From positions 1,024 to 65,023 of the forward strand of contig JAOABP010000006.1 of the NCBI GenBank assembly GCA_026418295.1: a stretch of 64,000 nt of DNA, in the 5' to 3' direction. Source of the stretch: a candidate division WOR-3 bacterium. GTDB lineage: Bacteria; Hydrothermota; Tepidihabitantia; Tepidihabitantales; Tepidihabitantaceae. Below the pieces are notes generated by a model that was not told where the DNA came from, did not search any database, and saw only the letters and a list, made by a program, of their open reading frames with translations. Below, in pieces: positions 30,335 to 62,923 of the stretch (positions within the stretch are counted from its first letter, which is position 1; each line of letters starts with the position of its first letter). The position numbers were made by a program, and so were the translations under genes.

Positions 30335-30343
30335 AAGATGTTT

Positions 30344-42589: not shown

Positions 42590-44005
42590 TTGATATTCAG
42601 GGATAGCAGGCTGAAATCCGAGGCAGTTAACAGGCTGTTAGAGATTGTTTCTTCCGATCGGCTGATCACCGAGACCGAACGGCTGCTGGACTACAGCCAC
42701 GATGAAAGTCCGCACCCTCCATGTGTTCCGGTTGCGGTGGTCAAGCCGGTAAGCGTCGAGGAGGTTGTCCGGATTGTTCAATTTGCCCGCGAGGAGAGGT
42801 TACCGTTAACACCGCGCGGACTCGGTACCGGTCTCGCAGGTGGTTCGGTGCCGGTTCACGGCGGGCTGGTAATCAGTCTGGAGCTGATGAACCGGATTCT
42901 GGAGATTGATAACGTAAATCTCATGGTCCGGACCGAACCGGGAGTTGTTACTGCGAGGTTACAGGAGGCATGCGCTGCTTATGGTCTCTATTATCCTGTC
43001 GACCCGGCTTCGCTTGACGACTGTTCAATTGGCGGTAATGTGGTGACGAATGCCGGTGGCGCCCGGGCGTTCAAGTATGGTGTTACCGGTGACTATGTTA
43101 CCGGAGTTCAGGCGGTACTTGCCGATGGTTCGGTGATCAATTATGGCGGCAAGCTGCGCAAGAATGCCACCGGTTATGATCTGAACCGGCTGCTGGTCGG
43201 TTCGGAAGGAACTCTGGGAGTTGTGACTGAGATTACCTTCCGTCTTGTGCCCAAGCCGGCTCATCAGGTGGATCTGCTCATCCCCTGTCGAAGTATGACA
43301 CAGGCGGTGGAACTTGTAATCCGGCTGGTGCAGGAACGGCGACTGATGCCCGCGGTAGTGGAGTTTTTTGAGAAGAAGGGAACTGATGCCAGCATCAGGG
43401 TGCTGGGAGAAAATTTGCCATTTCCCGATGCGGCAGTTCAGGTACTGATTGAACTGGAAGGGAATGACCGGGAGGCGGTAGCGGAGGATGCATTAAAACT
43501 GGGAGAGATGGCGATGGCGCTGGGAACGGATGAACCGCTGGTTGCCGAAGATGCATCAAGCCAGGCACGGCTGTGGAAGACACGCCGTTCGCTGGCAAAG
43601 ACATTAAAACAGCTTTATCCAGAGGTAATTGCCGAGGATATTGTTGTCCCGGTCAGCCGGCTGGCGGAGACGGTTGAGTTTATCCGCCAGCTGGAATCCC
43701 GGTTTGGACTGATGATTGTGCCGTTCGGGCATATAGGCGACGGTAATATTCATACTGACTTCTGCCGGAATGAGTCTGACCGGGCGGGCTGGCAGGAGCG
43801 GGTGAACCGGGCGGTTGATGAACTGATTGATTTCGTGGTCCGGGCTGGCGGTCAGATAACCGCCGAGCACGGAATCGGTGCCCTGAAAAAGAGATTGATG
43901 AAGAAGGGACTGGGGGAGGCAGAGCTCAGGCTGATGCGTCATCTGAAGCAGACACTGGATCCGGATAATATTTTGAATCCGGGCAAGGTACTGCCTGATG
44001 ATTAG
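42590..44005 (+). CDS. FAD-linked oxidase (GlcD / D-lactate dehydrogenase family)
   Basis: 471 aa. FAD_binding_4-like region (PRGLGTGLAGGSVP, GGNV.TNAGG) and C-terminal HIGDGNIH...AEHGIG. Confidence 0.85.
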   Translation: MIFRDSRLKSEAVNRLLEIVSSDRLITETERLLDYSHDESPHPPCVPVAVVKPVSVEEVVRIVQFAREERLPLTPRGLGTGLAGGSVPVHGGLVISLELMNRILEIDNVNLMVRTEPGVVTARLQEACAAYGLYYPVDPASLDDCSIGGNVVTNAGGARAFKYGVTGDYVTGVQAVLADGSVINYGGKLRKNATGYDLNRLLVGSEGTLGVVTEITFRLVPKPAHQVDLLIPCRSMTQAVELVIRLVQERRLMPAVVEFFEKKGTDASIRVLGENLPFPDAAVQVLIELEGNDREAVAEDALKLGEMAMALGTDEPLVAEDASSQARLWKTRRSLAKTLKQLYPEVIAEDIVVPVSRLAETVEFIRQLESRFGLMIVPFGHIGDGNIHTDFCRNESDRAGWQERVNRAVDELIDFVVRAGGQITAEHGIGALKKRLMKKGLGEAELRLMRHLKQTLDPDNILNPGKVLPDD

Positions 44006-46143
44006 TAACGGAGGCGGACTTTGGCAATCCTGCCGGTTTTCCTGAAGTTTTTCCCCTGAACGACCACGATGTAGACACCATCGGCAACTTCCCGGTTCTG
44101 CTCGTTGGTGCCGTTCCACTGAATTTCCCGGGTTTGAACCCGGGAGAATTTTTTTACCAGAGTGCCGGAGAGGGTGTAGATGAAGACATCCGGTATCTCC
44201 TCCGGCGGAAAATCGAGGATTAACCGGCAGGGACCGGTAAAGGGTGCCGGCAGGGTATAGGGTTCTGCCCAGCTGGTGATTTTGACGGGGTAGTACTGGC
44301 TGACATAAGAGCGGTTGCCGAATGAGTCAATCGCAATCACCAGAAAGTAATAGCCTGAGGTGTCGCGGGCGAGGTTAAAGAGATAGGCGGTGGTATCACT
44401 AGTAGTCAATGCCCGGCGCAGACTGGCAAACCGCTCAATTCTGATGTCATCGATAAAGACACCAAGCCGGTTGATTTCGGCGTCAGTCTGATATCGGAAT
44501 CTCAGATAAAGTTGAGGAGCGGCGGGAAGAAGATAGCGTAATTCCTGCCATTTTTCGCCATCACCATAGATTGAGTCCAGCGGCTGCCAGGCGGTTCTGT
44601 CGCCAGAACATTCGACATAGCAGACATCCCGGTGGATATTGCCGGTCGAATCTTCGGTCTCCTGAGTGGAGTAGAATACATAGAATGAGAGCAGTCCTCC
44701 GTGTGGCAGAGGGAGCGGGTCTTTCAGTTCCAGTTGACAGTTCAGATTGCTGGCTGAGCCCGAGAAGAACGCCTGTGCCGGGGAGCGGAAGTAGCGGGTG
44801 GACAGACTCCAGCCGTTGCTTTCCCAGTTATTCAAACTGTCTCCATGGTCAAGGAGTATGATTTCCGGTTCAGTTACCTGATAAAGTTCATAAGTTAGCG
44901 ATACCAAATCCCAGCTTTTCCTCCACCAGAGCCGGATTTCCCCCCGTCTACCGGTTCGATGGCGGGTGATTTCCGGGGTCTCCGGTTTCACATCATCACA
45001 GCCGAAGTAGCTGTTGAGAAATCTCAGCCATGGTATGGAATCGGCAAAGGTCAGCCAGCGGTATTCGCTGGTTTTGGATTTAAAATCAAGATAGCCGGAA
45101 GGAAACCAGACGGCAACACCCCGGGCATTGGCCAGGCTGCCGGCAGTGGCGTTGGCGACAATCAGTGGATTGAGCGTTGAACGCAGGTATGTCAGACCGG
45201 TACCGGGTGCCAGTTCCCAGAAGTGAATAAAGTCAATCTGTTCGTCCCTGACAGAAGGTGGATGGACCGCATCGGTGGGGAAAGTCTGAACTCCGGTTCG
45301 TGCCAGCTGGTAGCCGGTGGCCTGCGGATTCAGGCTGTCCTGCAGGACCGGGCCCAAAATTTTCATCACCCGTTCGAGCTGGTGCAGGTCAAGGGCGGAA
45401 AGGCAGACATCCTCTCCCGGGAAGGAGCTGACATAGTCGGCACAGAATTCCGGGAGAAATTCCTCCGGGGTTGAGGTCGGTCGGGCGGTCAGACGTCCGA
45501 GAAAAAGATCGTAAGGGAAACCATCCCACTCAACCACCGCTTCGGATGCCAAGAGATAATCGGCAAACGGCATCAGTTCAGCTGCGATTTCAATTGACCC
45601 CATGAGACAGGCATCAAATCCGATGATGGTGAGTTTCCGGCCAAGGTGTTCAACGCCGCTTTTAATTGCCTTCCGGAGTTCACCTCCGGCAACACCCATC
45701 ATGTGGGCATGGGACTCGTCAATGAGTACCGCCCTTTGCGGTCCGTAACCGGCACGCCAGCCATTACCATGGTCCCAGAGAATCAGCAGGTAGTTCGAGG
45801 CAGGATAGTGTGTGCCGAGGAATTCGATGAACTCTGCCAGCACTGCGGTGTCTGCCATATCAACCTCCCCCAGGTCTGCAAGCAGATCCAGCACTGATTT
45901 CCGTACATAATAACGACGGCAACCCGGGTTGGTGTCCCGGGCAGCGTTGTCAACCTGAACGATGATATTGACCTCGCTGGTCGAACCTATTGTAAGCATT
46001 TCCCGGAGATCTTCATATGCCTGTTCACTCATGCCGTTGTCGGCACACATGTAGATACCGACAGTCCACTCGGTACCGTAGACAGGACACAGAAGTAAAA
46101 GCAGGGGGATGGTTAACCATCCCCCTGCCTGTCGGATCGCCAT
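44002..46143 (-). CDS. secreted C11 (clostripain-family) cysteine peptidase with MAM-like beta-sandwich and T9SS C-terminal sorting domain
   Basis: 713 aa. Signal peptide, catalytic-dyad contexts LILWDHGNGW (His) and IGFDACLMG (Cys), MAM-like ...LRFRYQTDAEINRLGVFIDDIRIE, and CTD ...IYTLSGTLVKKF...WNGTN...ADGVYIVVV. Confidence 0.8.
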   Translation of the reverse strand: MAIRQAGGWLTIPLLLLLCPVYGTEWTVGIYMCADNGMSEQAYEDLREMLTIGSTSEVNIIVQVDNAARDTNPGCRRYYVRKSVLDLLADLGEVDMADTAVLAEFIEFLGTHYPASNYLLILWDHGNGWRAGYGPQRAVLIDESHAHMMGVAGGELRKAIKSGVEHLGRKLTIIGFDACLMGSIEIAAELMPFADYLLASEAVVEWDGFPYDLFLGRLTARPTSTPEEFLPEFCADYVSSFPGEDVCLSALDLHQLERVMKILGPVLQDSLNPQATGYQLARTGVQTFPTDAVHPPSVRDEQIDFIHFWELAPGTGLTYLRSTLNPLIVANATAGSLANARGVAVWFPSGYLDFKSKTSEYRWLTFADSIPWLRFLNSYFGCDDVKPETPEITRHRTGRRGEIRLWWRKSWDLVSLTYELYQVTEPEIILLDHGDSLNNWESNGWSLSTRYFRSPAQAFFSGSASNLNCQLELKDPLPLPHGGLLSFYVFYSTQETEDSTGNIHRDVCYVECSGDRTAWQPLDSIYGDGEKWQELRYLLPAAPQLYLRFRYQTDAEINRLGVFIDDIRIERFASLRRALTTSDTTAYLFNLARDTSGYYFLVIAIDSFGNRSYVSQYYPVKITSWAEPYTLPAPFTGPCRLILDFPPEEIPDVFIYTLSGTLVKKFSRVQTREIQWNGTNEQNREVADGVYIVVVQGKNFRKTGRIAKVRLRY

Positions 46144-46158
46144 TGCGGCGATTGCGTT

Positions 46159-47211
46159 TTAGAATCCGACGGTCAGCATCAGCCGGTGTGCCGGCTTGAT
46201 GTACTGATAATATCGGAAGGAGTAGTCAAGACCGAGTTCCAGTCCTTCTGCCGGTTTTCCCTTGATGCCAACGCCGGCACACAGACCGGTGAGCATTCCC
46301 AGTTTCTGTTGATAGTTCTGGTCAACATTTAGAATATACCCGCCGCGCAGGAAGAGCATTTCTGAGAGTCCGTATTCGAGACCGAAGTTAACCGTTTCGT
46401 TGATATCGGACGGATGAACGATGTCAATTGCTGCTGTCAGCCGGTGCGGGCAGGTCTGAACCAGATCCATTGCCACACCGAACCGGAAAGCAGTGGGGAG
46501 AGGAGCGGGGGTGGTTTTGTAGGAGCCCTGAAGTTGACTCGGTCCGGAGTCAGGCCAGTAGAAGTTATAATCGAGATGCGGACCGGAAAATGACAGCTGA
46601 GTACCGAAGTTGGTAACTGCAGCACCAAGCCGGAGCGATTTGAAGCCGGTGTTATAGAACAGTCCGAGGTCGAGCCCGATTGCCGAGGCACCCATATCCC
46701 AGATGGTCTGCTGGACACCTTTGACCGTGAGGCCGAAGGAGAGCTTGTCAGTAATAATGCGGGCGTAGCTGATTCCAAAGGCGATGTCGTTGGCGCTGAT
46801 CGTAAGCCCGGTACCCTCATCTTCCCGGACCGGTGTCTTCGGGTCATCAACAGTCGTCTGTTCGATTTCTCCCATCGTCAGTGCGTTCGCCCAGATACCC
46901 ACAGTGCCGAAGTTGGTTACTGGCAGGACAACCGTTAGATAGTCATGGTTGAGGTCGGCAAACCAGTTGGCGTGATTTGCCTGTGCCTGGCGCTTGATGT
47001 GTGCCAGACCAGCGGGGTTGAACCAGGTAGCGGAAGCATCGTCCGCAAGTGCAGTAAAGGCATCGCCCATCCCGGAAGCCCGGCCGACACTGATTTTCAG
47101 AAAGTTAGCGCCGGTGGTTGCCACCTTGCTGAAGGCAGCCTGGGCAACCGAAAAGGCGCCTACCAATACAAACAGCAGGCTGATAATGCCGATTTTTAAT
47201 CCTGTTTTCAT
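46159..47211 (-). CDS. PorV/PorQ-family-like outer-membrane beta-barrel
   Basis: 350 aa. Signal peptide, then GANFLKISVGRASGMGDAFTALADDASATWFNPAGLA N-terminal signature. Ends in ...LTVGF (C-terminal Phe). GGGAGG SD. Confidence 0.6.
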   Translation of the reverse strand: MKTGLKIGIISLLFVLVGAFSVAQAAFSKVATTGANFLKISVGRASGMGDAFTALADDASATWFNPAGLAHIKRQAQANHANWFADLNHDYLTVVLPVTNFGTVGIWANALTMGEIEQTTVDDPKTPVREDEGTGLTISANDIAFGISYARIITDKLSFGLTVKGVQQTIWDMGASAIGLDLGLFYNTGFKSLRLGAAVTNFGTQLSFSGPHLDYNFYWPDSGPSQLQGSYKTTPAPLPTAFRFGVAMDLVQTCPHRLTAAIDIVHPSDINETVNFGLEYGLSEMLFLRGGYILNVDQNYQQKLGMLTGLCAGVGIKGKPAEGLELGLDYSFRYYQYIKPAHRLMLTVGF

Positions 47212-47223
47212 CTCTGCCTCCCT

Positions 47224-50106
47224 TTAATGGATGAACATGAACTTGCCCGTATATTCTCCAGCAGGGGACTCAACATGGAAGACGTAGACACCAGACGCGA
47301 TCAGCTGTCCGTAGTCATTGACCAGATCCCAGGTAGCGGTGCCACCTTCATCCAGCGGCTGTTTATTCGTATCACGGTGTTCAATCACCTTTACCAGGTC
47401 GCCGGAGGTGGTATAGATTCTGATCGTGCAGCGGTTGGGCAGATGAGTAAACTTGATCACCCGCTGGTCCGATGTTTTTTCCCAGCCGTTAAATACGATG
47501 TAGGGGTTGGGGACCACTTTGACCTGCAGTTTGCGTTTGGTGGTTGTGTCGGCATAACCGGTGGTGGAGACCAGCCGCAGGATATTGTAGAATGGAGCCG
47601 AACCTTCAGTCCGATGGCCGGTCAGAAGCCAGACATCACCATCCTGAATCGAGTTCAGCAGACTGCGCAGACTGTCGCCCGAGGGCTTCAATCCGAGGTA
47701 ACCGCCGCCGATGTAGATGTTGGCGATCGTGCCTTTCAGGGTGTCGGTTGGAGAGCGGAACAGCCGGTCAACAAAGCACCAGCCGTTGGCGTTCTGCGGT
47801 CCGGTACCGGCGGTGGTGAATTTAGAGAATGGAACTTCAATATTGCCGTTGGTAAGGTCATAGACCTGGGCAGTGAGATAGCCGTCCCGGTTCTTCCATT
47901 CAATCCGGTAGTCAGAACCTCTGAATGCCCAGTATGCCTGTGCCGGTACGCTGCCGACTTTCAGTGATTCCGCCGGATAACTGCCACTGAGCACACTCAC
48001 CGCATCAAAAGGTGTGGCAGGGATTTTCATGTTCATGACCATTTTCAGCCCGATACCGTTGATTACCGGCAGGTTGATTACCATCTTCTTTGCCGGCGAG
48101 GCGATTTCATAGACGAAGGATGTGGTGTCGACTACGAGTGAATCATTACGGCTGGTATTGACGACATAATAGGAGTATCTGGGTTTTGAGGTGGAACCGG
48201 ACCATTGAGGACCGAGGAACCGGATTTCGTAGACATCGCTATTAACCAAGAACGGAACCGCAACCGTGGTTGTGCAGGACAGCGCGCTGTTTAATGTGTC
48301 GCCTGCCACTTTGACGATTCGGGCTTCGGGGAAGATATAGTTAGGGGCATCCCAGCGGGGGACAGTGGAGAAGTTGGAGACAATTCCGGAGCGGAGAATC
48401 AGCGTATCCCAGGCGATCGGTTGACCCTGAGCATTGGTGTCGGTTGTAACATAATTCCAGTCGTAGGCGGTAACGCAATAGTAATAGGTGAAACCGTTGA
48501 TCACATTTTTATCCAGCAGTGTGTAGTAGATGCCGGAGTCGGTTGCCTTGATCCAGAGACTGTCGGGAAGTGTGGAGTCGCCCCCCGGAGGATAAGTGAA
48601 GGTGATGGAATCAGCCAGGTCGCACTGTCCGATAATTTGCCAGTTTGCACCATCGCGCGACTTGTAAATGATATAGCCTTGGAAGTCGTAACCGCGATAC
48701 ATCGGGTCATAACCCGGTTCCCCACGTCGGCTTGCTACCTTTTCCCAGTAGCGATCCGGAGTCCTTTCCGGCAGATCATCCCAGACGATCCGCACCTGTT
48801 TGTCCCCGGGAACCAGAATGATATTGGGAGCGACCGGAGGTCCGGGCAGGAGCCATCCTTGGTCAAAGATGAACTGGGCGGAGTTTGCTACCTTGGCAAG
48901 GTGAACCAGTGAGTCTTTGGGGCGATCTGCCCAGGGCTGGTTCGCTCCGCCAAATGGAGCACCGATTGCAGCAACAACGAGCCGTTCTACCTGTCCGGGG
49001 GCGAGGTTGAATGGACCGGAGCACATGATGAAGCGCTTGTCTGCAGGTGAGACATCAACTGAATCATATGCGGAGTAGACACCAGTGCGATAGTCGTAAC
49101 CGGCCATAGTCAGATACTGGGCAGGGTCAGTGACCGGGTCGATGTCAATCGTGAATTTCTTGAATGCGGTCATGCCCAGCGGTACTTTAATTGTGTCTCC
49201 TTCCGGAGTGATTGAGTCGCGTTTGGGGCTGTCGAGGAACTTGTAGGCAAAGACACCGGGTGTGCCCGCTTCCCAGGTTGTTCCCGGACTTTCGTTGTTG
49301 TCGTAGTCACCAGCATAACCGACATTGCGTACCCAGCCGGCGCCCGGGATGGAGTCGTAGAGAATGAAGCCAACCATGTCGTCAGTGGCGTTGCCGATGT
49401 CCGGATCCATGACCGCACCGATGAAGCACCTTTTGAGCGTGTCGGTTCCAGAGTTGCGGACATTGTAGATTATGAAGAAGATATCCTGATTGGAAGGGTA
49501 GTTCCAGGCATAGACCACCTGATAGACATCAATGTTCTGGGGCTTGCCCGGCGCGATGTGATTTTCCGGAGCACCGTCCGAGTAGACACACCACATGTCC
49601 TGTAGTGAGAATGCCTCATAAGGAATAAGCACGCTGTCCAGTTTCGGATCGCCAGTCTGCCAGCGGTCACGCGGATCCGGGGGCCAGTCGTTCGGATAGA
49701 CGAAGATCCGGTCTTCAGCAGCACCAGCTCCTTCAGGAGCATGGGCAACTGTGGTTGGCGTCATTTCCGTTCCACCGGAATTGGGGTTGTAGCCAAACGA
49801 GACGAGTGTGTCAATTTTTTCATCCGCACGGGGTTTTAATGAGCCGAACCACATACCAGCACCAAAGATGTAGCAGTTGTGGAGCGGCTGGGGCCAGGAA
49901 CCGCCCGCCTGACCGGTGCCGACCGTAACATCAATTCCGTAGCGGCCGTCGTTGTAGAACGGACACTTCCAGCGGTTGATGTTCAGCCATTTCATATCAT
50001 AGATCCGCTTGCCCGATTTCAGCGGGGTGGCGGATCTGGCAAGCACCGGTGTAAGAAGCGCCAGCAACAGCAGGCTGGCGATGGTTAAATTAAGCAGTTT
50101 CTTCAC
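47224..50106 (-). CDS. 960-aa secreted protein: unassigned conserved N-terminal domain + T9SS C-terminal sorting domain
   Basis: GTG at 50106 lies 4 nt after GGGAGGAAAG and directly after the upstream stop, whereas the ORF-track ATG at 50136 overlaps the upstream gene by 20 nt. Signal peptide present. CTD reads ...KVVPNPY...IRIYTTSGDLVKVI...WDLVNDYGQLIASGVYVFHV. Paralogue at 54307. Confidence 0.6.
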   Translation of the reverse strand: MKKLLNLTIASLLLLALLTPVLARSATPLKSGKRIYDMKWLNINRWKCPFYNDGRYGIDVTVGTGQAGGSWPQPLHNCYIFGAGMWFGSLKPRADEKIDTLVSFGYNPNSGGTEMTPTTVAHAPEGAGAAEDRIFVYPNDWPPDPRDRWQTGDPKLDSVLIPYEAFSLQDMWCVYSDGAPENHIAPGKPQNIDVYQVVYAWNYPSNQDIFFIIYNVRNSGTDTLKRCFIGAVMDPDIGNATDDMVGFILYDSIPGAGWVRNVGYAGDYDNNESPGTTWEAGTPGVFAYKFLDSPKRDSITPEGDTIKVPLGMTAFKKFTIDIDPVTDPAQYLTMAGYDYRTGVYSAYDSVDVSPADKRFIMCSGPFNLAPGQVERLVVAAIGAPFGGANQPWADRPKDSLVHLAKVANSAQFIFDQGWLLPGPPVAPNIILVPGDKQVRIVWDDLPERTPDRYWEKVASRRGEPGYDPMYRGYDFQGYIIYKSRDGANWQIIGQCDLADSITFTYPPGGDSTLPDSLWIKATDSGIYYTLLDKNVINGFTYYYCVTAYDWNYVTTDTNAQGQPIAWDTLILRSGIVSNFSTVPRWDAPNYIFPEARIVKVAGDTLNSALSCTTTVAVPFLVNSDVYEIRFLGPQWSGSTSKPRYSYYVVNTSRNDSLVVDTTSFVYEIASPAKKMVINLPVINGIGLKMVMNMKIPATPFDAVSVLSGSYPAESLKVGSVPAQAYWAFRGSDYRIEWKNRDGYLTAQVYDLTNGNIEVPFSKFTTAGTGPQNANGWCFVDRLFRSPTDTLKGTIANIYIGGGYLGLKPSGDSLRSLLNSIQDGDVWLLTGHRTEGSAPFYNILRLVSTTGYADTTTKRKLQVKVVPNPYIVFNGWEKTSDQRVIKFTHLPNRCTIRIYTTSGDLVKVIEHRDTNKQPLDEGGTATWDLVNDYGQLIASGVYVFHVESPAGEYTGKFMFIH

Positions 50107-50116
50107 CTTTCCTCCC

Positions 50117-52945
50117 TTAGAACGACAGGCTGACACCGAAGCGAATTTTGCGTGAGGGACCGAAATAGGTCGGTGCCTTCACATAATCCTCTCTTGCCCG
50201 CATATAGGACTGATACAGTTCCATCTGTGACAGGTAGCCATCATGATTGAAATCGCGTGCTGGATGATAGTAAAGGTCACCGAAGCGGATTCCCGGCGAG
50301 AACTCCTGAGGTGTGTAAACCCTGCCGTCATAATCAGGCTTGCCGGTGGCAGAGTAGACGCTGGTGACGACCCGGGCGTTGAGGAGGTTGGTGATGTCAC
50401 AGGAAAGCGCCAGGTTGAGACCGCCCAGTTTTATGTCCTTGCCGAAGCGCATATCAATAGTGAAACTTGACGGCATGCGTGCCGAATTATCCGGTCCGGT
50501 GCGGTTGCCGCGGATGTCGGTCGGGGTGTAGGGCAGTCCGGAACCGTAGTTTGCCACTGCTGAGGTGTTGAAGTCCCGCAGGGGGATGAAGATGAAGTCT
50601 GAAGGGAAGGAAAGTCCGATACTGCCGTGGAGCGAGTGGCGCTGGTCCTGATCAAGATAGTAGTCAACCTGGAGCGGTTTTTCACGCTGATACTGATCAG
50701 TTGCGGTAGAAGCGGTGCCCTTGGCAATCTGGAAGGTGTAGCCGAGCTGGGCGTTCCAGTAATTGGAAAGTGCCTTGGTCATCGTTGCCTCAAACCCCTG
50801 GATCCGGGCGTATTCAACATTGTAATACATCGTATAGGGCTGAGGCAGTGCGGAGACAACGCGGACACCGGAAAGGTCAAATACATCCTTGTAGAAGGCG
50901 GTGAGGTCAAAGGCAAAGACATCGGTCAGCTGGGCATCAAAACCGATTTCGTAGGCGATTGTTTTTTCCGCGCTCATATTCGGATTGCCGACGATAATGT
51001 TACCGCGGCCCCGGAGTTCAGCTGCCGGGCGTTCGGCATATTCATAAAGGTTGGCAAATACCGGGTTCTTGAAGAAATGGCCGTAAGAGAAGCGGAATTT
51101 GATGCGTTCGGTAATCGGATAGGAGATACCGAGCCGGGGTGAGAGCCGGAACTTCGGCGGGACTGGCAGGAAGCTGTCAGATATCTCCGGTGTGGAGCCG
51201 AGTGATTCTGGGAATGCCCGGACCCTCGCCTTCGCATCCAGATAGTCAAACCGGATACCGGCGCGCACTACGAGGTCTTCGAAATCAGCCCGGTCTTGAA
51301 CATAGGCGGCTGCCACGAGCGGTTTATAATTGTAGGCATCCCAGAAGGGGTTGGCATCCCAGGGGAGCGAGTTGTCATACATTGAAACTGAGTACTGGGT
51401 GATGTCAACGCCGGTTTTTACTTCATGGACCTTGGAAATCGTCCTGGTCAGGTCAAACTTGAACAGGGCGTGATTTGTCGCCCGGTAATGCCAGACCCGG
51501 TTGTCGCCCTCGGTCACGAACAGTCCTGGTACACCAAGTGGATAATCAAGCAGGGCATAAGCCTGCATGAAGTTTTTCTTCTGTGCCTTGTGGGCATAAA
51601 CTGTGTCGCCATTCGGCGCCAGCCAGTAGGAACGGTAGAGCTGAAGTACCGCTTCCTTTTTGCTCAATCCTTCCGGATTGTTGAATACCCAGTCTTCTGC
51701 CCGGAAGAAATACCGGTCCCAGATGCCGGTTTTGCGCAGAAATCCCCAGAAGCCGGTGGTGTCTGCTGCCTCAGCGTCGAAGTTGCGCACCGTCCGGATG
51801 AGCGAGGTCTGGAAGATGCCGAATTTTGCTTCGTATACGGTGGTCGGGGAGAGCATATGGTTCAGGGTGATGTTGGATTTGTAGCTGCGGACCCGGTTGG
51901 CATACATCGCCTGCAGATAATACTTGTAGGTGTTGGACCAGGTCTGCCACTGATAATTGGAGTGATAGCCATCGATCGTCAATTTCATACCTTCCCGTGT
52001 GAGGAAAAATTCCTTCGGGAACTGCAGGGTGAGTTTGCCTTCGGCCGCATATTCGCCCCGGGGGGCATCCACTTTGTAAAGGCAGTTCCGGTCGTCGTCA
52101 GTTTTGAAGTATTCAGTGGAAATGAAGTAGCGGAGCCGGTTCCAGAAGGTCGGACCGCCGATGGAAAATGTAACCCGGTTATAGCCGAAGTTCAAGTCGG
52201 GTTTTGGGAAAACCTCATCGGTGAGGTAACCGAACTTTCCCGAAGTGCGGTTACCACCTTCCTTCGTTACCGCCTTGATGATGCCGGACATTGCCGAGCC
52301 GTATTCAGCATCAAACCCGCCGGTCACCACCACTACCGATGCCAGTGCGTCGCTCGTCGGTTTGGGACTGGACCAGAGGGTGCCGACAACCGCATCCTGG
52401 GCGGCAACACCATCGACGAGATATGCGACATCGTCGTATCTGCCTCCACGGATATGGGTCCAGCCTCGACCCGCGGTCTGAGTTACACCTGCCTGCAGGC
52501 CGACCAGTTCGGAGAGCTGAACTACTGGCAGTCGCTTGAATTCTTCGTCCGTGATGACCCTTTCGACTGTAACCGTGCCCCGGTTCACCATCGGGCGCTC
52601 CGCCTTTACTTCCACTGTTCCGACTTCAATCGCCGTGGGTGTCAGCTGGAAATCAATCACCGTCACCTGATCCTGCACTACCAGCACATCGGTGACCGTC
52701 ATCTCATTGTAGGAGATATAGGAGGCACTCAGCTTGTATCGGCCCGGGGGGACATTGTTGATTTCATATTCACCGTTGGCGTCAGTTGCCGCGCCCAGTT
52801 CCGTTCCGACGACGATCACATTGGCACCGATTAATGGTTCCCGAGTCCGTTTGTCCATAACTTTTCCCCTGATTCTGCCGACCACACCGGCGAAGGCAGC
52901 CGGAACGGTCAGCAGGAGGATCAGGAAAAGCGTCAATTTCTTCAT
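50117..52945 (-). CDS. TonB-dependent receptor-type outer-membrane barrel with N-terminal carboxypeptidase-regulatory-like domain (SusC/RagA-like architecture)
   Basis: 942 aa. Signal peptide, GRIRGKVMDKRTREPLIGANVIVVGT..GAATDANGEYEINNVPPGRYKL domain, plug-like THIRGGRYDDVAYLVDGV, a long barrel, and terminal ...GVSLSF. Confidence 0.78.
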   Translation of the reverse strand: MKKLTLFLILLLTVPAAFAGVVGRIRGKVMDKRTREPLIGANVIVVGTELGAATDANGEYEINNVPPGRYKLSASYISYNEMTVTDVLVVQDQVTVIDFQLTPTAIEVGTVEVKAERPMVNRGTVTVERVITDEEFKRLPVVQLSELVGLQAGVTQTAGRGWTHIRGGRYDDVAYLVDGVAAQDAVVGTLWSSPKPTSDALASVVVVTGGFDAEYGSAMSGIIKAVTKEGGNRTSGKFGYLTDEVFPKPDLNFGYNRVTFSIGGPTFWNRLRYFISTEYFKTDDDRNCLYKVDAPRGEYAAEGKLTLQFPKEFFLTREGMKLTIDGYHSNYQWQTWSNTYKYYLQAMYANRVRSYKSNITLNHMLSPTTVYEAKFGIFQTSLIRTVRNFDAEAADTTGFWGFLRKTGIWDRYFFRAEDWVFNNPEGLSKKEAVLQLYRSYWLAPNGDTVYAHKAQKKNFMQAYALLDYPLGVPGLFVTEGDNRVWHYRATNHALFKFDLTRTISKVHEVKTGVDITQYSVSMYDNSLPWDANPFWDAYNYKPLVAAAYVQDRADFEDLVVRAGIRFDYLDAKARVRAFPESLGSTPEISDSFLPVPPKFRLSPRLGISYPITERIKFRFSYGHFFKNPVFANLYEYAERPAAELRGRGNIIVGNPNMSAEKTIAYEIGFDAQLTDVFAFDLTAFYKDVFDLSGVRVVSALPQPYTMYYNVEYARIQGFEATMTKALSNYWNAQLGYTFQIAKGTASTATDQYQREKPLQVDYYLDQDQRHSLHGSIGLSFPSDFIFIPLRDFNTSAVANYGSGLPYTPTDIRGNRTGPDNSARMPSSFTIDMRFGKDIKLGGLNLALSCDITNLLNARVVTSVYSATGKPDYDGRVYTPQEFSPGIRFGDLYYHPARDFNHDGYLSQMELYQSYMRAREDYVKAPTYFGPSRKIRFGVSLSF

Positions 52946-53985
52946 TGTCCGCCTCCTTTGACATTAATTGGAATTCCCCAGACGGTGGCGGTCAGTTCTC
53001 CACCCGCATCATAAAGCACGGGGAACGGAATCTGCTCAATATAGAGCCACTGTACTCCGGTCTGATTCAGCTTCAGCCGGCTGCCGGACCAGAGCCGGTA
53101 GCGGGTATTGTTGTAAAAGAGGAAATTCTGAGCATCGGTAACTGCGGTATAGAGCCCGGTTACCCAGACGCTGTCATTCACTGAGTAGGAAAGCAGTCCA
53201 TCCGGATATTCATAGAACCGCTGACAGCCGAAGTGCAGTGTGTCCGGACGCAGGAAGAAGGTGTCAACGCGAACGCCGTTGGTCAGATAGGCTTGAATAA
53301 AATAGGGCGCATCATCAGGGTTGGGAGCGTAGAACCTCGGACCGCCGGTAATCTTCCAGAAGCGCCACTGGCCATTTTCCTTCTTCAGAACGCAGCCATT
53401 GATGACGACACCATTGATCGGTTTCTCTACAATCATTGAGGTGTCGGTGAACAGCGTGTCATGAAATTTCAGCCGGATGGTCTCCGAAGGGGTGATGATG
53501 ATGGAATCGCGGAGAAAACGGGTATATTTGCGGGCGTGCAGTCTTAACAGCCCCGGAATAGTTTCTACGACGGTTACAGTTGCGGTGGTTTCTTTGGAAA
53601 CGGTATCAGCAACGGCGATGAATTTATAAGCCCATTTCCGGCCGGTGCTGTCAAACCAGTGCTGCATCGAGTCGCAGATGTAGCGCTGTTTGAATGCGTT
53701 GTCCTTGATCGCCTTTTTCAGAATCGAGTCCGAGATCAGCCAGTCAAAATACTGGAATCCGGTTTCATTAAAATTAACCGTAAGCAGATTCCGGTTTGCT
53801 TCGATCACCGCGGCGATTGCGGTGCTGTCGGCTGCGCTCGGCTGCCAGATCGCCGGTGGGGGCATGCGGCCGCAACCGGTGAGGGCAATTGTTATCAGCA
53901 GGAAACCGGCAGCCAGAAGAATCAGCCAGTTTCTTCCTGATGCCGGAGGCGCAGCCGGGTGGTTTTTACCAACTATGATCCGCAC
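52942..53985 (-). CDS. hypothetical lipoprotein, first gene of the envelope operon
   Basis: 347 aa. GTG start 6 nt after AAGGAGG. Lipobox ITIALTGC. No domain I recognise. ATGA overlap with the downstream barrel gene. Confidence 0.5.
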   Translation of the reverse strand: MRIIVGKNHPAAPPASGRNWLILLAAGFLLITIALTGCGRMPPPAIWQPSAADSTAIAAVIEANRNLLTVNFNETGFQYFDWLISDSILKKAIKDNAFKQRYICDSMQHWFDSTGRKWAYKFIAVADTVSKETTATVTVVETIPGLLRLHARKYTRFLRDSIIITPSETIRLKFHDTLFTDTSMIVEKPINGVVINGCVLKKENGQWRFWKITGGPRFYAPNPDDAPYFIQAYLTNGVRVDTFFLRPDTLHFGCQRFYEYPDGLLSYSVNDSVWVTGLYTAVTDAQNFLFYNNTRYRLWSGSRLKLNQTGVQWLYIEQIPFPVLYDAGGELTATVWGIPINVKGGGQ

Positions 53986-54085
53986 AGTCTGCCTCCTTTT
54001 ATTTTATTTTATTTTTTCCTGATTTATTAGTCTCGTTGTCTGTCCACATATGCGTTATACCGAAATTAAACTTCGGTTTTGCAGA

Positions 54086-54113
54086 ATATTAACAGAATAC
54101 ATAAACGTGTCAA
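54086..54113 (-). promoter_or_regulatory. candidate promoter (TTGACA-16 nt-TAATAT) for the 53985-44002 operon
   Basis: The minus-strand -35 is at 54108-54113 and the -10 at 54086-54091. This would give a ~95-nt leader ending in an (AAAAT)3 tract and the SD. Confidence 0.3.
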
Positions 54114-54251
54114 AAGGAATGACCCAGCCCTCGGCAGGTCCGAACTCGGATTGGTTATCAATTACCAAGTTATACTAAAATTAGCCAAAGACCGGTCTGT
54201 GTCAAGCAAATCAGGGGTTTGTGCCGATGATAGATAGAGCTTTTGGGCTGA

Positions 54252-54280
54252 TTGACAGAATCGATATTTACCCTTATAAT
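54252..54280 (+). promoter_or_regulatory. perfect-consensus sigma70-type promoter (TTGACA-17 nt-TATAAT) for the 54307 cargo gene
   Basis: TTGACA at 54252-54257 and TATAAT at 54275-54280. AAAGGAGG SD 7 nt before the ATG at 54307. Confidence 0.55.
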
Positions 54281-54306
54281 TTCCCGGGCAGCGAAAGGAG
54301 GTTTTT

Positions 54307-55692
54307 ATGAAAAGGCTGCTGTTTGTGGGAATCCTGCCGGCGCTTGTCTTTGGAATCTATGACATGAAGTGGTTTGATCTGAATAACTGGCGGTGTCCGT
54401 TCTACAATGATGGTCGCTGGGGAATTGATATTACAACTGGTTCTGGTGCGCCGGGTGGTTCCTGGCCCCAGCCGCTGAGGAATTTCTATATCTTCGGAGC
54501 CGGGACATGGATTGGCACGATTGTCGATAATGATACTCTTACTACCTGCGGGTATAATCCCAACTCGGGAGGTACGGAGATGTTTCCGGCACTGTGCCGT
54601 TACTGGCGGCAGACACCCATGGATTCTGCTGACCGGATTTATAAATATCCCGGGGACTGGCCGCCGCCGGCAGCCAGATTTCCGATGGCACCACAGCAGG
54701 TGCGTTCGGAAATGGACCTGTGGATGTGTTACGGCGATTCTGAGCCCAGTTGTCATATATCCCCGGGAAGGCCTTTGGGGGTGGATGTCTATCTTACCGT
54801 CTACGGATTCTCCGATTCATTTTCACGAGACATATTCATTCTGAAGTATGAACTTGCCAACGCCTCAGGCAGCCGTCGGGACGAAGTTTATTTCGGGCTG
54901 GTGGTTGATGCCGATATCGGGAATTATGCTGATGATATGGCCGGTTTGATTCTGAACAGGCGGTTTATTGTCGGTACCGATACCTTCTGGGTGAAGAACA
55001 CCGGTTTCTTCTATGATTATGATAATGTGGAGACCCGCAGTTCGGTGTGGGAATCAGGGACCCCAGGTGCCGTAGCCATCCGGCTGCTCCACGCTCCGGA
55101 CAATTTGAATCTGACCGTATTCAAGCGGTTTTCAATTGAGATTGACCCGGTGCGGGATCCTGAACAGTATCTGACCTTAAAGGGTTATAACTACCGGACC
55201 GGTGAATACGAACCTTATGACTCACTGGATCCGGCGCCAGGAGACAAACGGGCACTTTTGGCTGTTGGTCCGTTTAATCTGTTGGCGGATTCAGTGGCGA
55301 CCTTTTACTTTGCGGTAATCGCCTCACCCTACGGTGCTCCGGGGCAGGGTCCACAGGGTAGAGATACTACCGAACTGGCACTGCGGTGCTGGTGGGCGGA
55401 GCGGCTGCTTGCCAGAATTCTGGGCATTGAGGAGGCACAGGAGGTCAGATTTAAGCGAGGGTTGGCGGTTTATCCCAATCCCTGCCGGCTGGGAACTGTG
55501 ATGACCGTCAGTGGTGCTGATGGTGTCCGGATTTATGATCTTCAGGGCAGACTGGTGAAGGAGCTGAGCGGAAGTGATTTCCGCTGGGATGGAAGAGACA
55601 GTAGGGGCAGACTGGTGCCGGCTGGAGTTTATTTCTTCAGACCGGTTAATAATCAGGTGGAAGTTAGCAAGGTACTGCTGATTCCAGAGTAA
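54307..55692 (+). CDS. 461-aa secreted protein: same unassigned N-terminal domain as 47224-50106 + T9SS C-terminal sorting domain
   Basis: IYDMKWFDLNNWRCPFYNDGRWGIDITTGSGAPGGSWPQPLRNFYIFGAGTWIG aligns with the start of the 960-aa protein. CTD reads LAVYPNPC...VRIYDLQGRLVKEL...WDGRDSRGRLVPAGVYFF. Confidence 0.6.
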   Translation: MKRLLFVGILPALVFGIYDMKWFDLNNWRCPFYNDGRWGIDITTGSGAPGGSWPQPLRNFYIFGAGTWIGTIVDNDTLTTCGYNPNSGGTEMFPALCRYWRQTPMDSADRIYKYPGDWPPPAARFPMAPQQVRSEMDLWMCYGDSEPSCHISPGRPLGVDVYLTVYGFSDSFSRDIFILKYELANASGSRRDEVYFGLVVDADIGNYADDMAGLILNRRFIVGTDTFWVKNTGFFYDYDNVETRSSVWESGTPGAVAIRLLHAPDNLNLTVFKRFSIEIDPVRDPEQYLTLKGYNYRTGEYEPYDSLDPAPGDKRALLAVGPFNLLADSVATFYFAVIASPYGAPGQGPQGRDTTELALRCWWAERLLARILGIEEAQEVRFKRGLAVYPNPCRLGTVMTVSGADGVRIYDLQGRLVKELSGSDFRWDGRDSRGRLVPAGVYFFRPVNNQVEVSKVLLIPE

Positions 55693-55709: not shown

Positions 55710-57101
55710 TTATTGACGCCGCTCGAGATAAAAATCCTGCTGAATAAGTTGTCCCGGCGGTAAGTCAAGGGTACAGGACTGGGGAATGTAAGGTGCCGGC
55801 ACGCGAACTGATATTAGGTATCTGCCGCTCGGGAGATTCCTGATTGTATACATTCCGAGATCCGGGTCGGTCTCCTGCTCGCCATACACTGCACCTTTAT
55901 AGATTACAGTCCCAGACACAGGTTTTTTTGTTACCGCATCATAGATGGTGCCGGTAACCGTAGAGTAGCGCACCGGCTGGAGGGTGAGGACCGCCGACTG
56001 CTCGCGATCACCGATGATGAACATGGTATCGGTGCGCGTCTGGTAGTCTTTGCGGAAGGTGTGAATAATAAGGCGTCCGGGGGCAAGTCCGGTGATCAAC
56101 AGTTCCCCGGCCCGGTTGGTTTCACCGGTGAATTCCCGGACACCCTGAAGTTTGATACTGGCCCAGATCCGTTCACGGGTCAGGGCGTCAATTACCCGGA
56201 TACGCAGACTGCCATGACCGTAGCGCGGAAGGTTAAATCGAATGCCGAGTCGGTGAACTGTGCCCAGCTTACCGTAGCCTGAGAGCGAATAGTCAAGCGC
56301 AAGGTTTGTTAGATTGACACCGATGCCCATGGTCAGCCCGCTGAGCGCTCCGAGTTCATTGAGGTCCTGAGGTCCAGTCCGGTAGCCGGCACGCAGGCTC
56401 AGCTCAGTGATCGGCTGATACTCAATCCCCAGCCGGAGATGAAACTGCCGGTCACGGGGGTAAACGCCGTCAAGGAGTAGTCGTAATTTGCTGGCAGTCC
56501 AGGCAAGTCCGAGGACGAGCTCGGCAGGCAGAGTTTCCAGCTGGCTGTACTTCATTAAACCCAGATTGCGCACTGCCAGACCGGTTTTGAGGAACTCAAA
56601 AGGTTCGGCAGCGAAGCCGATATCCAGAGCAGTACCATAGCCGTAACCGGTATAAAGATTTTCATAACATCCCTTCAGTCCGGCACCGAGAAAATACCTT
56701 TCTGCGACCGGCACTCCGTAGCCGAGAGCAATGATACCGTTCCAGGCGGTAAAGGTGTCTCCGGGCTGGTTCTGTTCGTTCCAGAATTCGATCCCGGGCG
56801 TCGCGGAGTAGATCAGACTGAACCCGAAAACACCCCGCCCTGCGGGCAGGGCAAAATGCAGGAGTTCATCATTGGTGCCGTTATACCAGATCTGATGAGA
56901 CAAAGACAGGGCATAATCTCTGATTTTCCCCAGCCGGCCGCAGTTCCAGTAAAGGGCGGTGGCATCATCGACAGTTGCGGTCAGCGCATCCCCCAGCGCG
57001 GCACCGCGCGGACCCTCTGCCAGTCTGAGCAGGGGCAAGACCGAAGTTCCCGGTCCGGGATCGGTAAAGAGGGAGATAGCCACTAATAACAATATGCTCA
57101 T
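55710..57101 (-). CDS. PorV/PorQ-like barrel fused to two C-terminal carboxypeptidase-regulatory-like (Ig-fold) domains
   Basis: 463 aa. N-terminal LLRLAEGPRGAALGDALTATVDDATALYWNCGRLG signature. C-terminal GSLRIRVIDALTRERI... and VTGTIYDAVTKKPVSGTVIYKG...GMYTIRNLPSGRYLISV. Confidence 0.55.
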   Translation of the reverse strand: MSILLLVAISLFTDPGPGTSVLPLLRLAEGPRGAALGDALTATVDDATALYWNCGRLGKIRDYALSLSHQIWYNGTNDELLHFALPAGRGVFGFSLIYSATPGIEFWNEQNQPGDTFTAWNGIIALGYGVPVAERYFLGAGLKGCYENLYTGYGYGTALDIGFAAEPFEFLKTGLAVRNLGLMKYSQLETLPAELVLGLAWTASKLRLLLDGVYPRDRQFHLRLGIEYQPITELSLRAGYRTGPQDLNELGALSGLTMGIGVNLTNLALDYSLSGYGKLGTVHRLGIRFNLPRYGHGSLRIRVIDALTRERIWASIKLQGVREFTGETNRAGELLITGLAPGRLIIHTFRKDYQTRTDTMFIIGDREQSAVLTLQPVRYSTVTGTIYDAVTKKPVSGTVIYKGAVYGEQETDPDLGMYTIRNLPSGRYLISVRVPAPYIPQSCTLDLPPGQLIQQDFYLERRQ

Positions 57102-57874
57102 CGGCGGTTAATCACCAGCTTTTTCTTTATCCGGCTCACCCGTGCGCCCCGGTGCCATTCAAGGAGATAGTCATAGGTTCCGGAAGCAACTGGCTGATTG
57201 CGGTCATTCCGCGCGTTCCAGTCGATCTGATGGACACCGGCAGCAAGTGGTTCGTGCTGCAAAAGAGTGGCGATGCGTTCGCCGGTGCGATTGAAAATCA
57301 ACAGGCTGACTTCACCATTATCCGGAATGCCGATGACAAATGTTGTCCGGTTGTCAAGAGGGTTGGGAAAGTTGTGAATCAGTAATCCCGGGATAAGTCT
57401 GATATTCAACCGGGCACTGTCCCGGACCAGGCTGTCATTATCAAGGAATCCGGTGATGACCACTGCTGCGCTGTCCAGTTTGCCGGTGTCGCCGATCAAG
57501 TCAGTCGGGGCTTCAATCCGGAGTGTGAAATAGTGCGGTCTGTCCGGGGTGACAAACCCGAGTTCGGGGAAGCCGTCACGGTCCTCGTCTGTCAGGAGCA
57601 AGGCGTTTGCCGAATCGTATAACTGGCCGGTCCAGCCGGCGGGTAAAAAAGGCGGCAGAAACTCTACAATTGAACCGGAATCCGCCGACAGATTGACAAA
57701 GAACCGGTAATTCTTTTTTTCACCGGTTTGCAGCTGGTCGTTCTGATCCGGAGCAATTTCCAGCCGAATAAGCGGGCGACCGGTGATGTTCTGCCTGAGG
57801 TTCAGCTGCGATCGGCCAGGGGTCAATATGATAAGCAGAACCCCGAGCACGCTCCACCTGCCGCTGCGGCTCAC
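57098..57874 (-). CDS. 258-aa secreted protein with T9SS C-terminal sorting domain
   Basis: GTG start and signal-like N-terminus. CTD reads IHNFPNPLDNRTTFVIGIPDNGEVSLLIFNRTGERIATL...WNARNDRNQPVASGTYDYLL. ATGA overlap with the downstream gene. Confidence 0.55.
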   Translation of the reverse strand: MSRSGRWSVLGVLLIILTPGRSQLNLRQNITGRPLIRLEIAPDQNDQLQTGEKKNYRFFVNLSADSGSIVEFLPPFLPAGWTGQLYDSANALLLTDEDRDGFPELGFVTPDRPHYFTLRIEAPTDLIGDTGKLDSAAVVITGFLDNDSLVRDSARLNIRLIPGLLIHNFPNPLDNRTTFVIGIPDNGEVSLLIFNRTGERIATLLQHEPLAAGVHQIDWNARNDRNQPVASGTYDYLLEWHRGARVSRIKKKLVINRR

Positions 57875-61950: not shown

Positions 61951-61954
61951 TTTA

Positions 61955-62923
61955 TTACCTCCGGAGTTTATCCGTTTTCTCATCCTTCAGTCTGCGGCTC
62001 AGAACCGGCAGACAGAGAAGCGCCATTGCCAGTTCGGCGGTGCTCATCCAGATTCTGGTGATCAACGCTGATATGATAGCAACTGTTTCCGGCATTACCA
62101 GTTTGAGTATGTAAGTATAGATGCCTTCACGGATGCCGAGTCCGGCCGGGGCAATCAGGATGACAAACCCCAGAATCCAGGAGATGGCGTATCCGCCCAG
62201 CAGAATCGGCAGCCGGGAAAGGGGCAGGGGATAAAAGGAATTGAAGAGCACAAAACAGCCCACACCCTGAACAAACCAGTCCAGGACATAGACGCCAAGA
62301 ATAAGCAGTAACCGGGGGTAGGAGATTCGGAGTTCAAAGAGGGGCTGCCGGAACAGCCGGAGCAGCGGTTTGAGGATGCGGTTGAGAATCGGGGGATAGG
62401 TGACCAGCAGAGTGAGAGGCGCAAGGAGGAATGAGTAATAAATGGTGCGGGGAACAACGGTGCGGGGCAGGAGCAGAATGGCAAAGGCGAACAGGAATAT
62501 CGCGGCGAGGAGAAGAAAGCCGGTTTCAATGACCACACTGGCGAGGCTTCGGGCTTCCGGAACGCCTTCCCGGCGGGCAAAGGACATTCTGCCGAGTGTG
62601 AACCAGACCTTGCCGGGTGCATATTTCCCCAGCTGAGTGACCGTGAGAATTGCGAGTGCCCGTCCGAACGGGAGCCGGGCGTCCAGACCGGCAAGGAGCA
62701 GCTGCCAGCCCCAGGCACCGAGCGGGAAATGAAACAGAAGCAGAATGAGATAGGAGAGAATCAGGAGTCCGGGCTGAAAGCGGATACGGTCAAATGGAAT
62801 CTGGTGCCAGTCGCGGATGAGCCGGCTGAGGAGAAAATAGAATGAGACGACGACGATGAGCGTGCCCAGCGTATATCGGAGCCAGTTGAGTCTTTTCTGC
62901 GGGCGGTCCGGGCCGGTGTTCAT
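61955..62923 (-). CDS. flippase-like (UPF0104 / LPG-synthase-TM family) membrane protein
   Basis: 322 aa, about 8 TM helices, LGKYAPGKVW motif. ATGA overlap with the upstream GT4 gene. Confidence 0.55.
   Translation of the reverse strand: MNTGPDRPQKRLNWLRYTLGTLIVVVSFYFLLSRLIRDWHQIPFDRIRFQPGLLILSYLILLLFHFPLGAWGWQLLLAGLDARLPFGRALAILTVTQLGKYAPGKVWFTLGRMSFARREGVPEARSLASVVIETGFLLLAAIFLFAFAILLLPRTVVPRTIYYSFLLAPLTLLVTYPPILNRILKPLLRLFRQPLFELRISYPRLLLILGVYVLDWFVQGVGCFVLFNSFYPLPLSRLPILLGGYAISWILGFVILIAPAGLGIREGIYTYILKLVMPETVAIISALITRIWMSTAELAMALLCLPVLSRRLKDEKTDKLRR

Follow-up and report, generated by a model that had tools for sequence, protein, structure and literature searches.

A transporter, a tailed secreted protein and a PorV/PorQ-family barrel encoded together in a WOR-3 bacterium: a candidate nutrient-uptake cassette shared with other phyla

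A run of five minus-strand genes, here called A to E, lies in a 64,000-nucleotide stretch (hereafter the window) of contig JAOABP010000006.1, which belongs to a bacterium of candidate division WOR-3 (assembly GCA_026418295.1). The genes encode, in this order, a lipoprotein, a TonB-dependent transporter, a large secreted all-beta protein, an outer-membrane barrel of the PorV/PorQ family and a C11 cysteine peptidase with a type IX secretion system (T9SS) tail, and our results revealed that the three in the middle, B, C and D, form a core that recurs in several phyla. The coordinates are collected in Table 1. All five open reading frames (ORFs) are found where the initial annotation had placed them, from 53985 down to 44002, and the tight junctions that it had described can be seen as well. 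Gene A starts with a GTG codon behind an AAGGAGG; A and B share a 4-nt ATGA overlap at 52942-52945, with AAAGGAGG ahead of it; B and C are separated by 10 nt and C and D by 12 nt, each with a GGGAGG as the Shine-Dalgarno (SD) sequence; and D and E are separated by 15 nt, with no SD at this junction. Gene C could be read from 50136, as its longest ORF of 970 aa, but the start taken here is the GTG at 50106, which has the GGGAGG upstream of it and gives 960 aa.

Table 1. Features of the five-gene locus and of the region directly upstream of it (positions in the window)
Feature	Coordinates	Strand	Description
Gene A	52942..53985	-	347-aa lipoprotein
Gene B	50117..52945	-	942-aa TonB-dependent transporter
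Gene C	47224..50106	-	960-aa secreted all-beta protein
Gene D	46159..47211	-	350-aa PorV/PorQ-family outer-membrane barrel
Gene E	44002..46143	-	713-aa C11 cysteine peptidase with T9SS type A tail
Hairpin, core GGGGGATGG-TTAA-CCATCCCCC	46099..46130	-	perfect 14-bp stem, 13 nt into E, at the D/E junction
Divergent intergenic region	53986..54306	.	AT-rich; promoter-like sites on both strands
Short C paralogue	54307..55692	+	461 aa; N-terminal supersandwich domain directly fused to a standard type A tail
Second PorV/PorQ-family barrel	55710..57101	-	463 aa; C-terminal CarboxypepD_reg-like domain fused
Small T9SS-type tailed protein	57098..57874	-	258 aa; gene end overlaps the second-barrel start by 4 nt

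Upstream of A, the region of 321 nt is indeed AT-rich as had been claimed, with a GC content of 37-42% against about 54% in the genes, and promoter-like sites are present on both strands. The site on the minus strand (54113-54086) reads TTGACA-16-TAATAT with a TG ahead and would serve the A-E side, and the site on the plus strand (54252-54280) matches the consensus at 12/12 positions and faces the short C paralogue. Operator-like repeats were also sought in this region, and just short two-copy matches were obtained, which are likely due to chance. At the other end of the operon, the hairpin at the D/E junction folds with a free energy of -38.9 kcal/mol (z = -5.9) and is the sole copy in the window. 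It falls in the poorly conserved signal-peptide codons of E, is kept at the DNA level in the related loci L001, L002, L003, L005, L006, L008 and L009, and may set the expression of E relative to that of A-D.

The genomic context was covered by the 64-kb window and by 10-kb flanks of its relatives. A scan with a C-family profile, taking one genome per species, gave 74 loci; the order of genes was compared by BLAST of the window proteins against the six-frame ORFs of these loci, and context outside WOR-3 was called from Pfam annotation that had been precomputed for long contigs. In 30 WOR-3 loci all five genes are present at full length, in the order A-B-C-D-E and on one strand, and there the mean identity to the window is 68% for B, 65% for D, 61% for C, 50% for E and 44% for A; conservation in the operon is thus highest for B, and that of E falls below that of B, C and D. 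Further truncated loci show the same order, with identities down to 38% for C, 31% for E and 24% for A. The order is kept across dozens of independent metagenome-assembled genomes (MAGs), and the five genes are one conserved unit, as had been proposed. Moreover, the linkage of the three middle genes reaches beyond WOR-3: of the C-family genes, 74 have 1.2 kb or more of downstream sequence, and in 68 of these D comes immediately after C; 55 have 3 kb or more upstream, and in 53 of these B stands ahead of C; and the B-C-D core without A or E is seen in Ignavibacteriota, KSB1, Calditrichota, one Chlorobiaceae MAG and unclassified MAGs. As a separate observation, E directly follows C and D is missing in two MAGs, CSMAG_2425 (loci L019 and L045) and SRR22302361_concoct_155 (loci L031, L047 and L058), and separate short contigs show a C fragment, D and a C fragment; this could reflect a real rearrangement, strain mixtures or misassembly.

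Gene B is shown by its sequence to belong to the TonB-dependent transporters. It has an N-terminal CarbopepD_reg_2 domain (72.8 bits), the plug PF07715 that had been predicted (31.9 bits, above the cut-off of 23.9) and the barrel TonB_dep_Rec_b-barrel PF00593 (100.6 bits, above the cut-off of 27). Between the N-terminal domain and the plug, the strand GTVEVKAERP has the look of a TonB box as a sequence motif; its pattern x-V-x-V-x-A-E-R is kept in homologues of four phyla, and the plug motif IRGGR...VDG is likewise conserved across phyla. The B copies that adjoin C make up a high-scoring subfamily of their own across phyla: full-length transporters adjacent to C in other phyla score about 435-480 bits, against 99 bits for an unlinked transporter. 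While the carboxypeptidase-regulatory-type domain, plug and barrel of the former description all stand, its label "SusC-like" does not: membership of the SusC/RagA family was rejected, for the model TIGR04056 gives 67.2 bits, far below its cut-off of 368.25, and the match covers residues 25-181 only, at the N-terminus.

The product of gene C is shown to be a large protein that is secreted, is built of beta-sandwiches and ends in a conserved tail subclass of its own. A beta-supersandwich domain occupies about residues 40-430, followed by Fn3/Ig-like domains and by an extended C-terminal domain (CTD)-like region of about 110 aa with a terminal beta-sandwich. The AlphaFold2 (AF2) model is of moderate confidence (mean local confidence pLDDT 75, predicted template-modelling score pTM 0.50), and a Foldseek search of it against PDB gives weak matches to the beta-supersandwich N-domains, non-catalytic ones, of the GH94 and GH116 enzymes; neither this model, moderate as it is, nor its Foldseek matches reveal a recognisable catalytic fold. 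No family could be assigned by Pfam at expectation values up to 0.01, nor up to 10 on four segments, nor by the NCBIfam scan or a PDB profile search. In fact this unnamed family is a large one: at expectation values up to 1e-30 it has 1171 representatives in a library that had been clustered at 50% identity, and many among them are proteins of about 430-470 aa matching only the N-domain part of the C profile. The taxon-named homologues are hypothetical proteins of WOR-3 or of unclassified "bacterium" MAGs, and the nearest genome hit, L001, is a WOR-3 MAG whose protein C is 97% identical.

The tail of C merits separate attention. The model TIGR04183 gives no match at expectation values up to 0.01, and PF18962 gives 12.8 bits, below its cut-off of 27. 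The motifs PNPY, IRIY..G.LV and SGVY are nevertheless present together with the terminal beta-sandwich, NCBI names one KSB1 homologue a sorting-domain protein of type A, and PF18962 is hit in one relative; the tail is therefore regarded as a divergent, extended relative of the type A CTD. Thus the earlier reading of C as a T9SS cargo with an unassigned domain holds as to the CTD-like tail and the lack of a Pfam assignment, but the tail does not belong to the standard type A CTDs. All tails of 80 loci and the window were scored with a profile made from C residues 860-970: the 78 C-family tails score at least 55 bits and mostly above 80, those from other phyla included, while all other tails, namely those of E, of small tailed proteins and of a 2856-aa tailed protein in L064, score at most 23 bits with the match confined to the second half of the profile. 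On the full C profile, in the homologues that HMMER reports in pieces, the highest-scoring piece is formed by roughly the last 115 residues (70-107 bits), and within WOR-3 the tail and the N-domain are equally conserved (0.73), more so than the middle part (0.54). The tailed protein of L064 comes from an ORF of about 2850 aa on the minus strand (L064:13255-21822), which lies beside a B-C-D triad in an unclassified MAG.

The barrel encoded by D had been described as PorV-like. The family is right, since D scores 191 bits on the PorV/PorQ model NF033709, whose cut-off is 90, but the equivalog models are all missed: PorQ (NF033711), the best of them, gives 82.5 bits against 220, PorV2 (NF052325) 76.1 against 325 and PorV (NF033710) 66.3 against 250. 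FadL/Toluene_X gives 18.6 bits, below its cut-off, so a FadL-type barrel in place of a PorV-type one is not what D encodes. On the D profile built from WOR-3, the barrels adjacent to C score at least 143 bits and about 250 even across phyla, against 71-91 bits for other PorV/Q paralogues. The sequence comparisons thus show D as a PorV/PorQ-family barrel of a separate subfamily found beside C-family genes, and this subfamily is tied to C and not to cargo in general. The pairing of a special tail subclass with the barrel subfamily that follows it suggests that C and D are a cognate pair. Because the order, the linkage and the own subfamilies of B and D are all conserved, a chance juxtaposition of these genes is excluded, and the gene-neighbourhood check on the 30 full-length loci bears out the five-gene arrangement.

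It may be asked what the barrel does for C. In line with the initial annotation, one could imagine D as a dedicated but transient shuttle that takes C and E from the translocon, not as a permanent anchor, with C afterwards released or attached to a surface glycan. PorV does shuttle type A cargo in Bacteroidota (PMC10994853; PMC12618676), PorV of F. johnsoniae is the sole PDB sequence match of D, and two tailed proteins flank D in the operon. Yet D follows C also in cassettes that have no other adjoining tailed gene, D is linked to the special tail subclass of C and not to tails of the E type, its best equivalog score is that of PorQ and not PorV (all being below cut-offs), and in Ignavibacteriota and KSB1 loci many other tailed proteins occur without a barrel of their own. 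Such a shuttle role for D is therefore considered unlikely.

Gene E is shown by sequence comparison to encode a cysteine endopeptidase of the C11 family that is intact and carries a tail for T9SS export, and the three parts that the initial annotation had named are all recovered: Peptidase_C11 PF03415 scores 150.7 bits against a cut-off of 25.8, the MAM-like beta domain in the middle has a weak InhA-like MAM match, and the tail matches TIGR04183 with a marginal 24.3 bits against 23. E aligns to solved C11 peptidases, the alignment to 6n9j puts its DHG and DAC motifs on the catalytic residues, and His125 and Cys179 are invariant in 31/31 orthologues.

PorU is a clan-CD cysteine peptidase encoded next to porV, and one may ask whether E is likewise a PorU-like processing sortase for tailed proteins such as C, in which case the locus would be a lineage-specific attachment complex beside a transporter. 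C, the short C paralogue and E do match weakly the tail regions of the PorZ/PorU models, and retention of the PorU tail has been described (PMC10202324). These matches, however, are confined to the tails and far below the cut-offs, with 13.8 bits against 420 for E on the PorU sortase model and 28.9 bits against 260 for C on the PorZ model; Foldseek of C to 5m11 and 6za2 (PorZ, PorU) gives probabilities of 0.25-0.54 with TM scores of 0.10 or lower; the peptidase is missing from its slot in a paralogous WOR-3 cassette and in all non-WOR-3 cassettes; and there are several cassettes per genome, with E lagging B, C and D in conservation. We hold a sortase role for E to be very improbable, and C, D and E as the WOR-3 versions of PorZ, PorQ/V and PorU were rejected as the leading interpretation, the matches being tail-only, the folds insignificant and the peptidase not constant.

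Gene A agrees with its earlier description as a lipoprotein without recognisable domain: Cys38 of the lipobox L-x-G-C is invariant, and neither the Pfam nor the NCBIfam scan gives a family match. A lipoprotein export signal was not recognised in the sequence. The AF2 model (pLDDT 82) consists largely of beta structure and includes two hairpins of great length, and a Foldseek search against PDB returns nothing with an expectation value below 0.02. The fold of SusD is all-helical and TPR-like (of the tetratricopeptide-repeat kind). Since no significant structural match is obtained, A is not SusD-like in fold, and A as a SusD analogue by fold, the protein being mostly beta and lacking structural matches, was rejected; together with the SusD Pfam models, which are unmatched in all five proteins, this upholds the previous remark that no SusD-like gene is present. 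The homologues found are hypothetical proteins, and all taxon-named ones are from WOR-3 or an unclassified "bacterium". Genes of the A family also stand upstream of B in two paralogous cassettes, L051 and L052. The cassettes of Ignavibacteriota and KSB1 have instead, ahead of the transporter, a conserved secreted protein of about 490 aa that is unrelated to A and may be a dedicated chaperone. Its copies (L075:5306-6760, L078:5340-6815, L079:5454-6929 and L065:257-1759) share 45-56% identity with each other, and one of them has a weak match to a peptidyl-prolyl isomerase domain (Rotamase_2).

The surroundings of the B-C-D triad bear on its role. In one Ignavibacteriota locus, the triad is found with GH8, a tailed CBM4_9 protein, a tailed GH10, GH115, a glucuronoyl esterase and a SASA/GH2 protein; in KSB1 loci with GH97, GH67, a tailed GH10, tailed CBM9 proteins and GH43; in a further non-WOR-3 locus with a tailed GH43, GH51, GH10 and a XylR/AraC-type regulator; and in another with GH3, GH2 and a tailed GH127. 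Outside WOR-3 the cassette thus lies in clusters for the degradation of xylan and arabinan. Other triad loci have LacI or ROK regulators adjoining, with up to three transporters in a row, and the enzyme and regulator contexts as a whole span Ignavibacteriota, KSB1 and one MAG deposited as Sedimentisphaerales. Within WOR-3 itself, the paralogous cassettes L052 and L051, found in the MAGs that also contain L016 and L037, have the order TonB, tailed protein, A-family lipoprotein, B, C, D, and a protein with Big_7 and a right-handed beta-helix, which stands in the position of E. The E position varies, and A-B-C-D in WOR-3 looks like an uptake module with an exchangeable enzyme slot, which E fills at the present locus. 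The protease is a WOR-3 add-on and the module is not intrinsically proteolytic; hence, of the proposed surface proteolysis-plus-uptake module, the degradation-plus-uptake part fits the contexts rich in carbohydrate-active enzymes (CAZymes) and linked to regulators, but proteolysis does not belong to the module as such.

The same contexts bear on the question whether B-C-D is a nutrient importer at all, or a machine for building the envelope or a surface layer, working in export or anchoring. B, C and D are highly conserved within WOR-3, and envelope glycosylation genes are found nearby (57945-63915), as an envelope role would lead one to expect. But in four independent non-WOR-3 loci the cassette sits inside CAZyme clusters and in others beside sugar-responsive regulators, a TonB gene adjoins the paralogous cassette, and B keeps the TonB box and plug of an importer, so that we give little credence to the envelope-building alternative.

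From these results, the reading that we hold, with moderate confidence, to be the most likely is that the operon is a WOR-3 locus for protein or peptide utilisation, built on a conserved outer-membrane uptake cassette. E would be exported via the type IX pathway to the cell surface or the medium, where it would cut extracellular proteins. C would be exported likewise, and by analogy with PorZ/PorQ and PorU/PorV its tail would be kept and the protein held on the surface by D. C may then capture the fragments at the mouth of B, and B would import them with TonB energy. C and D together would stand in for SusD and the surface glycan-binding lipoproteins that partner the transporters of Bacteroidota, and in this model lipoprotein A is a WOR-3-specific accessory of the cassette. 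More broadly, we suggest, though only tentatively, that the B-C-D triad could represent an unrecognised class of importer in non-Bacteroidota phyla of the FCB (Fibrobacteres-Chlorobi-Bacteroidetes) group, the capture or lid partner of which is a type IX-exported non-lipoprotein with a CTD retained on a dedicated PorV/PorQ barrel.

Several points weigh against this picture. The substrate is suggested solely by the identity of E, and C11 peptidases can be processing enzymes. The contacts between C and D and between C and B are conjectural. The identities of 61-68% for B, C and D within WOR-3 are more typical of housekeeping genes than of a substrate-specific locus. The conservation of the C tail alone is no proof of its retention, for the tail of E is conserved about as much as the rest of E and so lies near its protein average. 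Finally, the lack of a catalytic domain in C is a weak negative in view of the moderate confidence of its AF2 model, and C has many invariant Asp, Glu and His residues. These residues lead to the further idea that C is a new hydrolase or lyase acting at the transporter and not a binding or lid protein, which would still be compatible with uptake. The invariant acidic and histidine residues are numerous in the N-domain, and this domain, for which Pfam has no family, is also found by itself as a secreted protein. On the other hand, the sole structural likeness of C is to non-catalytic beta-supersandwich domains, and the C family is found in both glycan- and protein-type loci, which fits better with a generic role in capture or as a scaffold; an enzymatic C is thus distinctly unlikely in our judgement.

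Turning to the neighbouring genes, the five-gene module can no longer be called self-contained as it had been, since a short C paralogue and a second pair of tailed protein and PorV/Q barrel lie directly upstream of it. The short C paralogue is transcribed divergently from A-E and shares the same promoter region; it has 41% identity to C residues 45-450 (expectation value 6e-102), and its tail matches TIGR04183 with a marginal 24.0 bits against 23. The second barrel scores 123.7 bits on NF033709 against 90, has 26% identity to D, and carries PF13620 (30.9 bits) at residues 381-459 as its C-terminal domain. The 258-aa tailed protein has a FlgD_ig match of 27 bits, a match to the PorU tail region and tail motifs visible in the sequence, and the stretch 55710-57874 is, by such sequence matches, a second pair consisting of a tailed protein plus a PorV/Q barrel. 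Some WOR-3 paralogues of C have neither B nor D beside them (L053:9806-15767, L062:9968-13045 and L063): that of L053 is followed by tailed proteins related to the short C paralogue, and in L062 and L063 short matches to it (16% coverage) lie a few kb away.

The envelope glycosylation-type run mentioned above is on the minus strand after the second PorV/Q pair and includes PMT_2-like, YfhO-like and LPG_synthase_TM-like genes and a GT4 glycosyltransferase. On the other side of the operon, a gene for a GlcD-like FAD-linked oxidase (42590-44005, plus strand) is convergent with E and shares 4 nt with it at the stop codon of E; the oxidase gene is kept beside E in many WOR-3 loci at 62-90% identity, with no evident functional link. 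Farther away, two paralogous fusions of a phosphotransferase-system EIIA-2 domain with a CitMHS transporter lie about 440 bases apart on the minus strand (17705-19630 and 20067-22007), in a stretch (14000-32000) with a GC content of 45-48% against 50-58% elsewhere in the window. The window also has tRNA genes and housekeeping genes such as recJ, dnaB, lepB, fabF and hisS, and it is ordinary chromosome. Among the window proteins scanned with Pfam and NCBIfam, which are not all of its ORFs, no full-length T9SS core component was matched.

The B-C-D core is apparently an undescribed nutrient-uptake cassette of several phyla that lack the classic SusC/SusD. TonB-dependent uptake of polymers is known almost entirely from the SusC/SusD systems of Bacteroidota, and the sister phyla in sediments, hot springs and digesters are degraders of plant and protein polymers with many T9SS-tailed enzymes and few or no SusD genes. 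The cassette would explain how secreted enzymes are coupled to import in these phyla; if this is true, the triad would functionally take the place of SusD and of surface glycan-binding proteins, and an exchange of the co-encoded secreted enzymes would let it serve for glycans as well as for proteins. It could also serve as an annotation marker for "PUL-like" loci (PUL, polysaccharide utilisation locus) outside Bacteroidota, given that the C family (1000-1300 aa) is now "hypothetical" and without a Pfam family, and the concept of cognate barrel and cargo, known from type IX secretion, would come to include barrels of the PorV family and the uptake of nutrients. In the case of WOR-3, of which to our knowledge no member has been cultured, the locus points to extracellular proteolysis and peptide import as a conserved trait. 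In the literature we found no description of an arrangement of transporter, tailed protein and PorV-like barrel, though the search was not exhaustive and thus gives no proof of absence.

Among known systems, the SusC/SusD PULs are alike in that a CarboxypepD_reg-type TonB-dependent transporter is co-encoded with surface partners and secreted degradative enzymes, and in other phyla the cassette sits, as they do, in CAZyme clusters with regulators. The differences are that the cassette has no SusD homologue and that B fails the SusC/RagA model; that the partner C is of the Sec/T9SS type with a CTD-like tail, is not a lipoprotein and has its own PorV/Q barrel; and that the hosts are WOR-3, Ignavibacteriota, KSB1 and Calditrichota instead of Bacteroidota. 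In P. gingivalis, the gingipains and RagAB combine a T9SS-exported cysteine protease with an outer-membrane peptide importer, and the pairing of E with B parallels this combination. As for the C11 family (clostripain, PmC11, fragipain), E shares the Pfam domain with its aligned His/Cys dyad, but it has about 370 extra residues including the MAM-like domain and the T9SS tail, and on the clostripain equivalog model it scores 54 bits, below the cut-off of 550.

The barrel and cargo pairs of T9SS are similar in that a tailed protein is encoded beside a FadL/PorV-like barrel. In the published model, the tail of PorZ is retained on PorQ and that of PorU on PorV (PMC10202324), and for type B CTD cargo genetically linked cognate PorP/SprF-like barrels have been shown (PMC12618676). 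In the cassette, however, C-D is joined to a TonB-dependent transporter and to genes for substrate degradation, D meets just the broad PorV/PorQ model and the tail of C is of a separate, longer subclass; and whereas the type A tails of Bacteroidota are said to use a single general PorV, the cassette has D, which is tied to C. A related idea is that of alternative lids: for non-SusC transporters in Bacteroides, conserved adjacent lipoproteins other than SusD have been proposed as lids on the outer face (Price, Deutschbauer and Arkin, bioRxiv 10.1101/2023.03.17.533168), and here too a lipoprotein gene, A, is directly upstream of B, although A has no recognised lipoprotein export signal or known fold. 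Those lids are all lipoproteins, and no PorV-like barrel and no partner with a CTD is reported for any of them; the cassette extends the idea from lipoproteins to a tailed protein with a barrel of its own.

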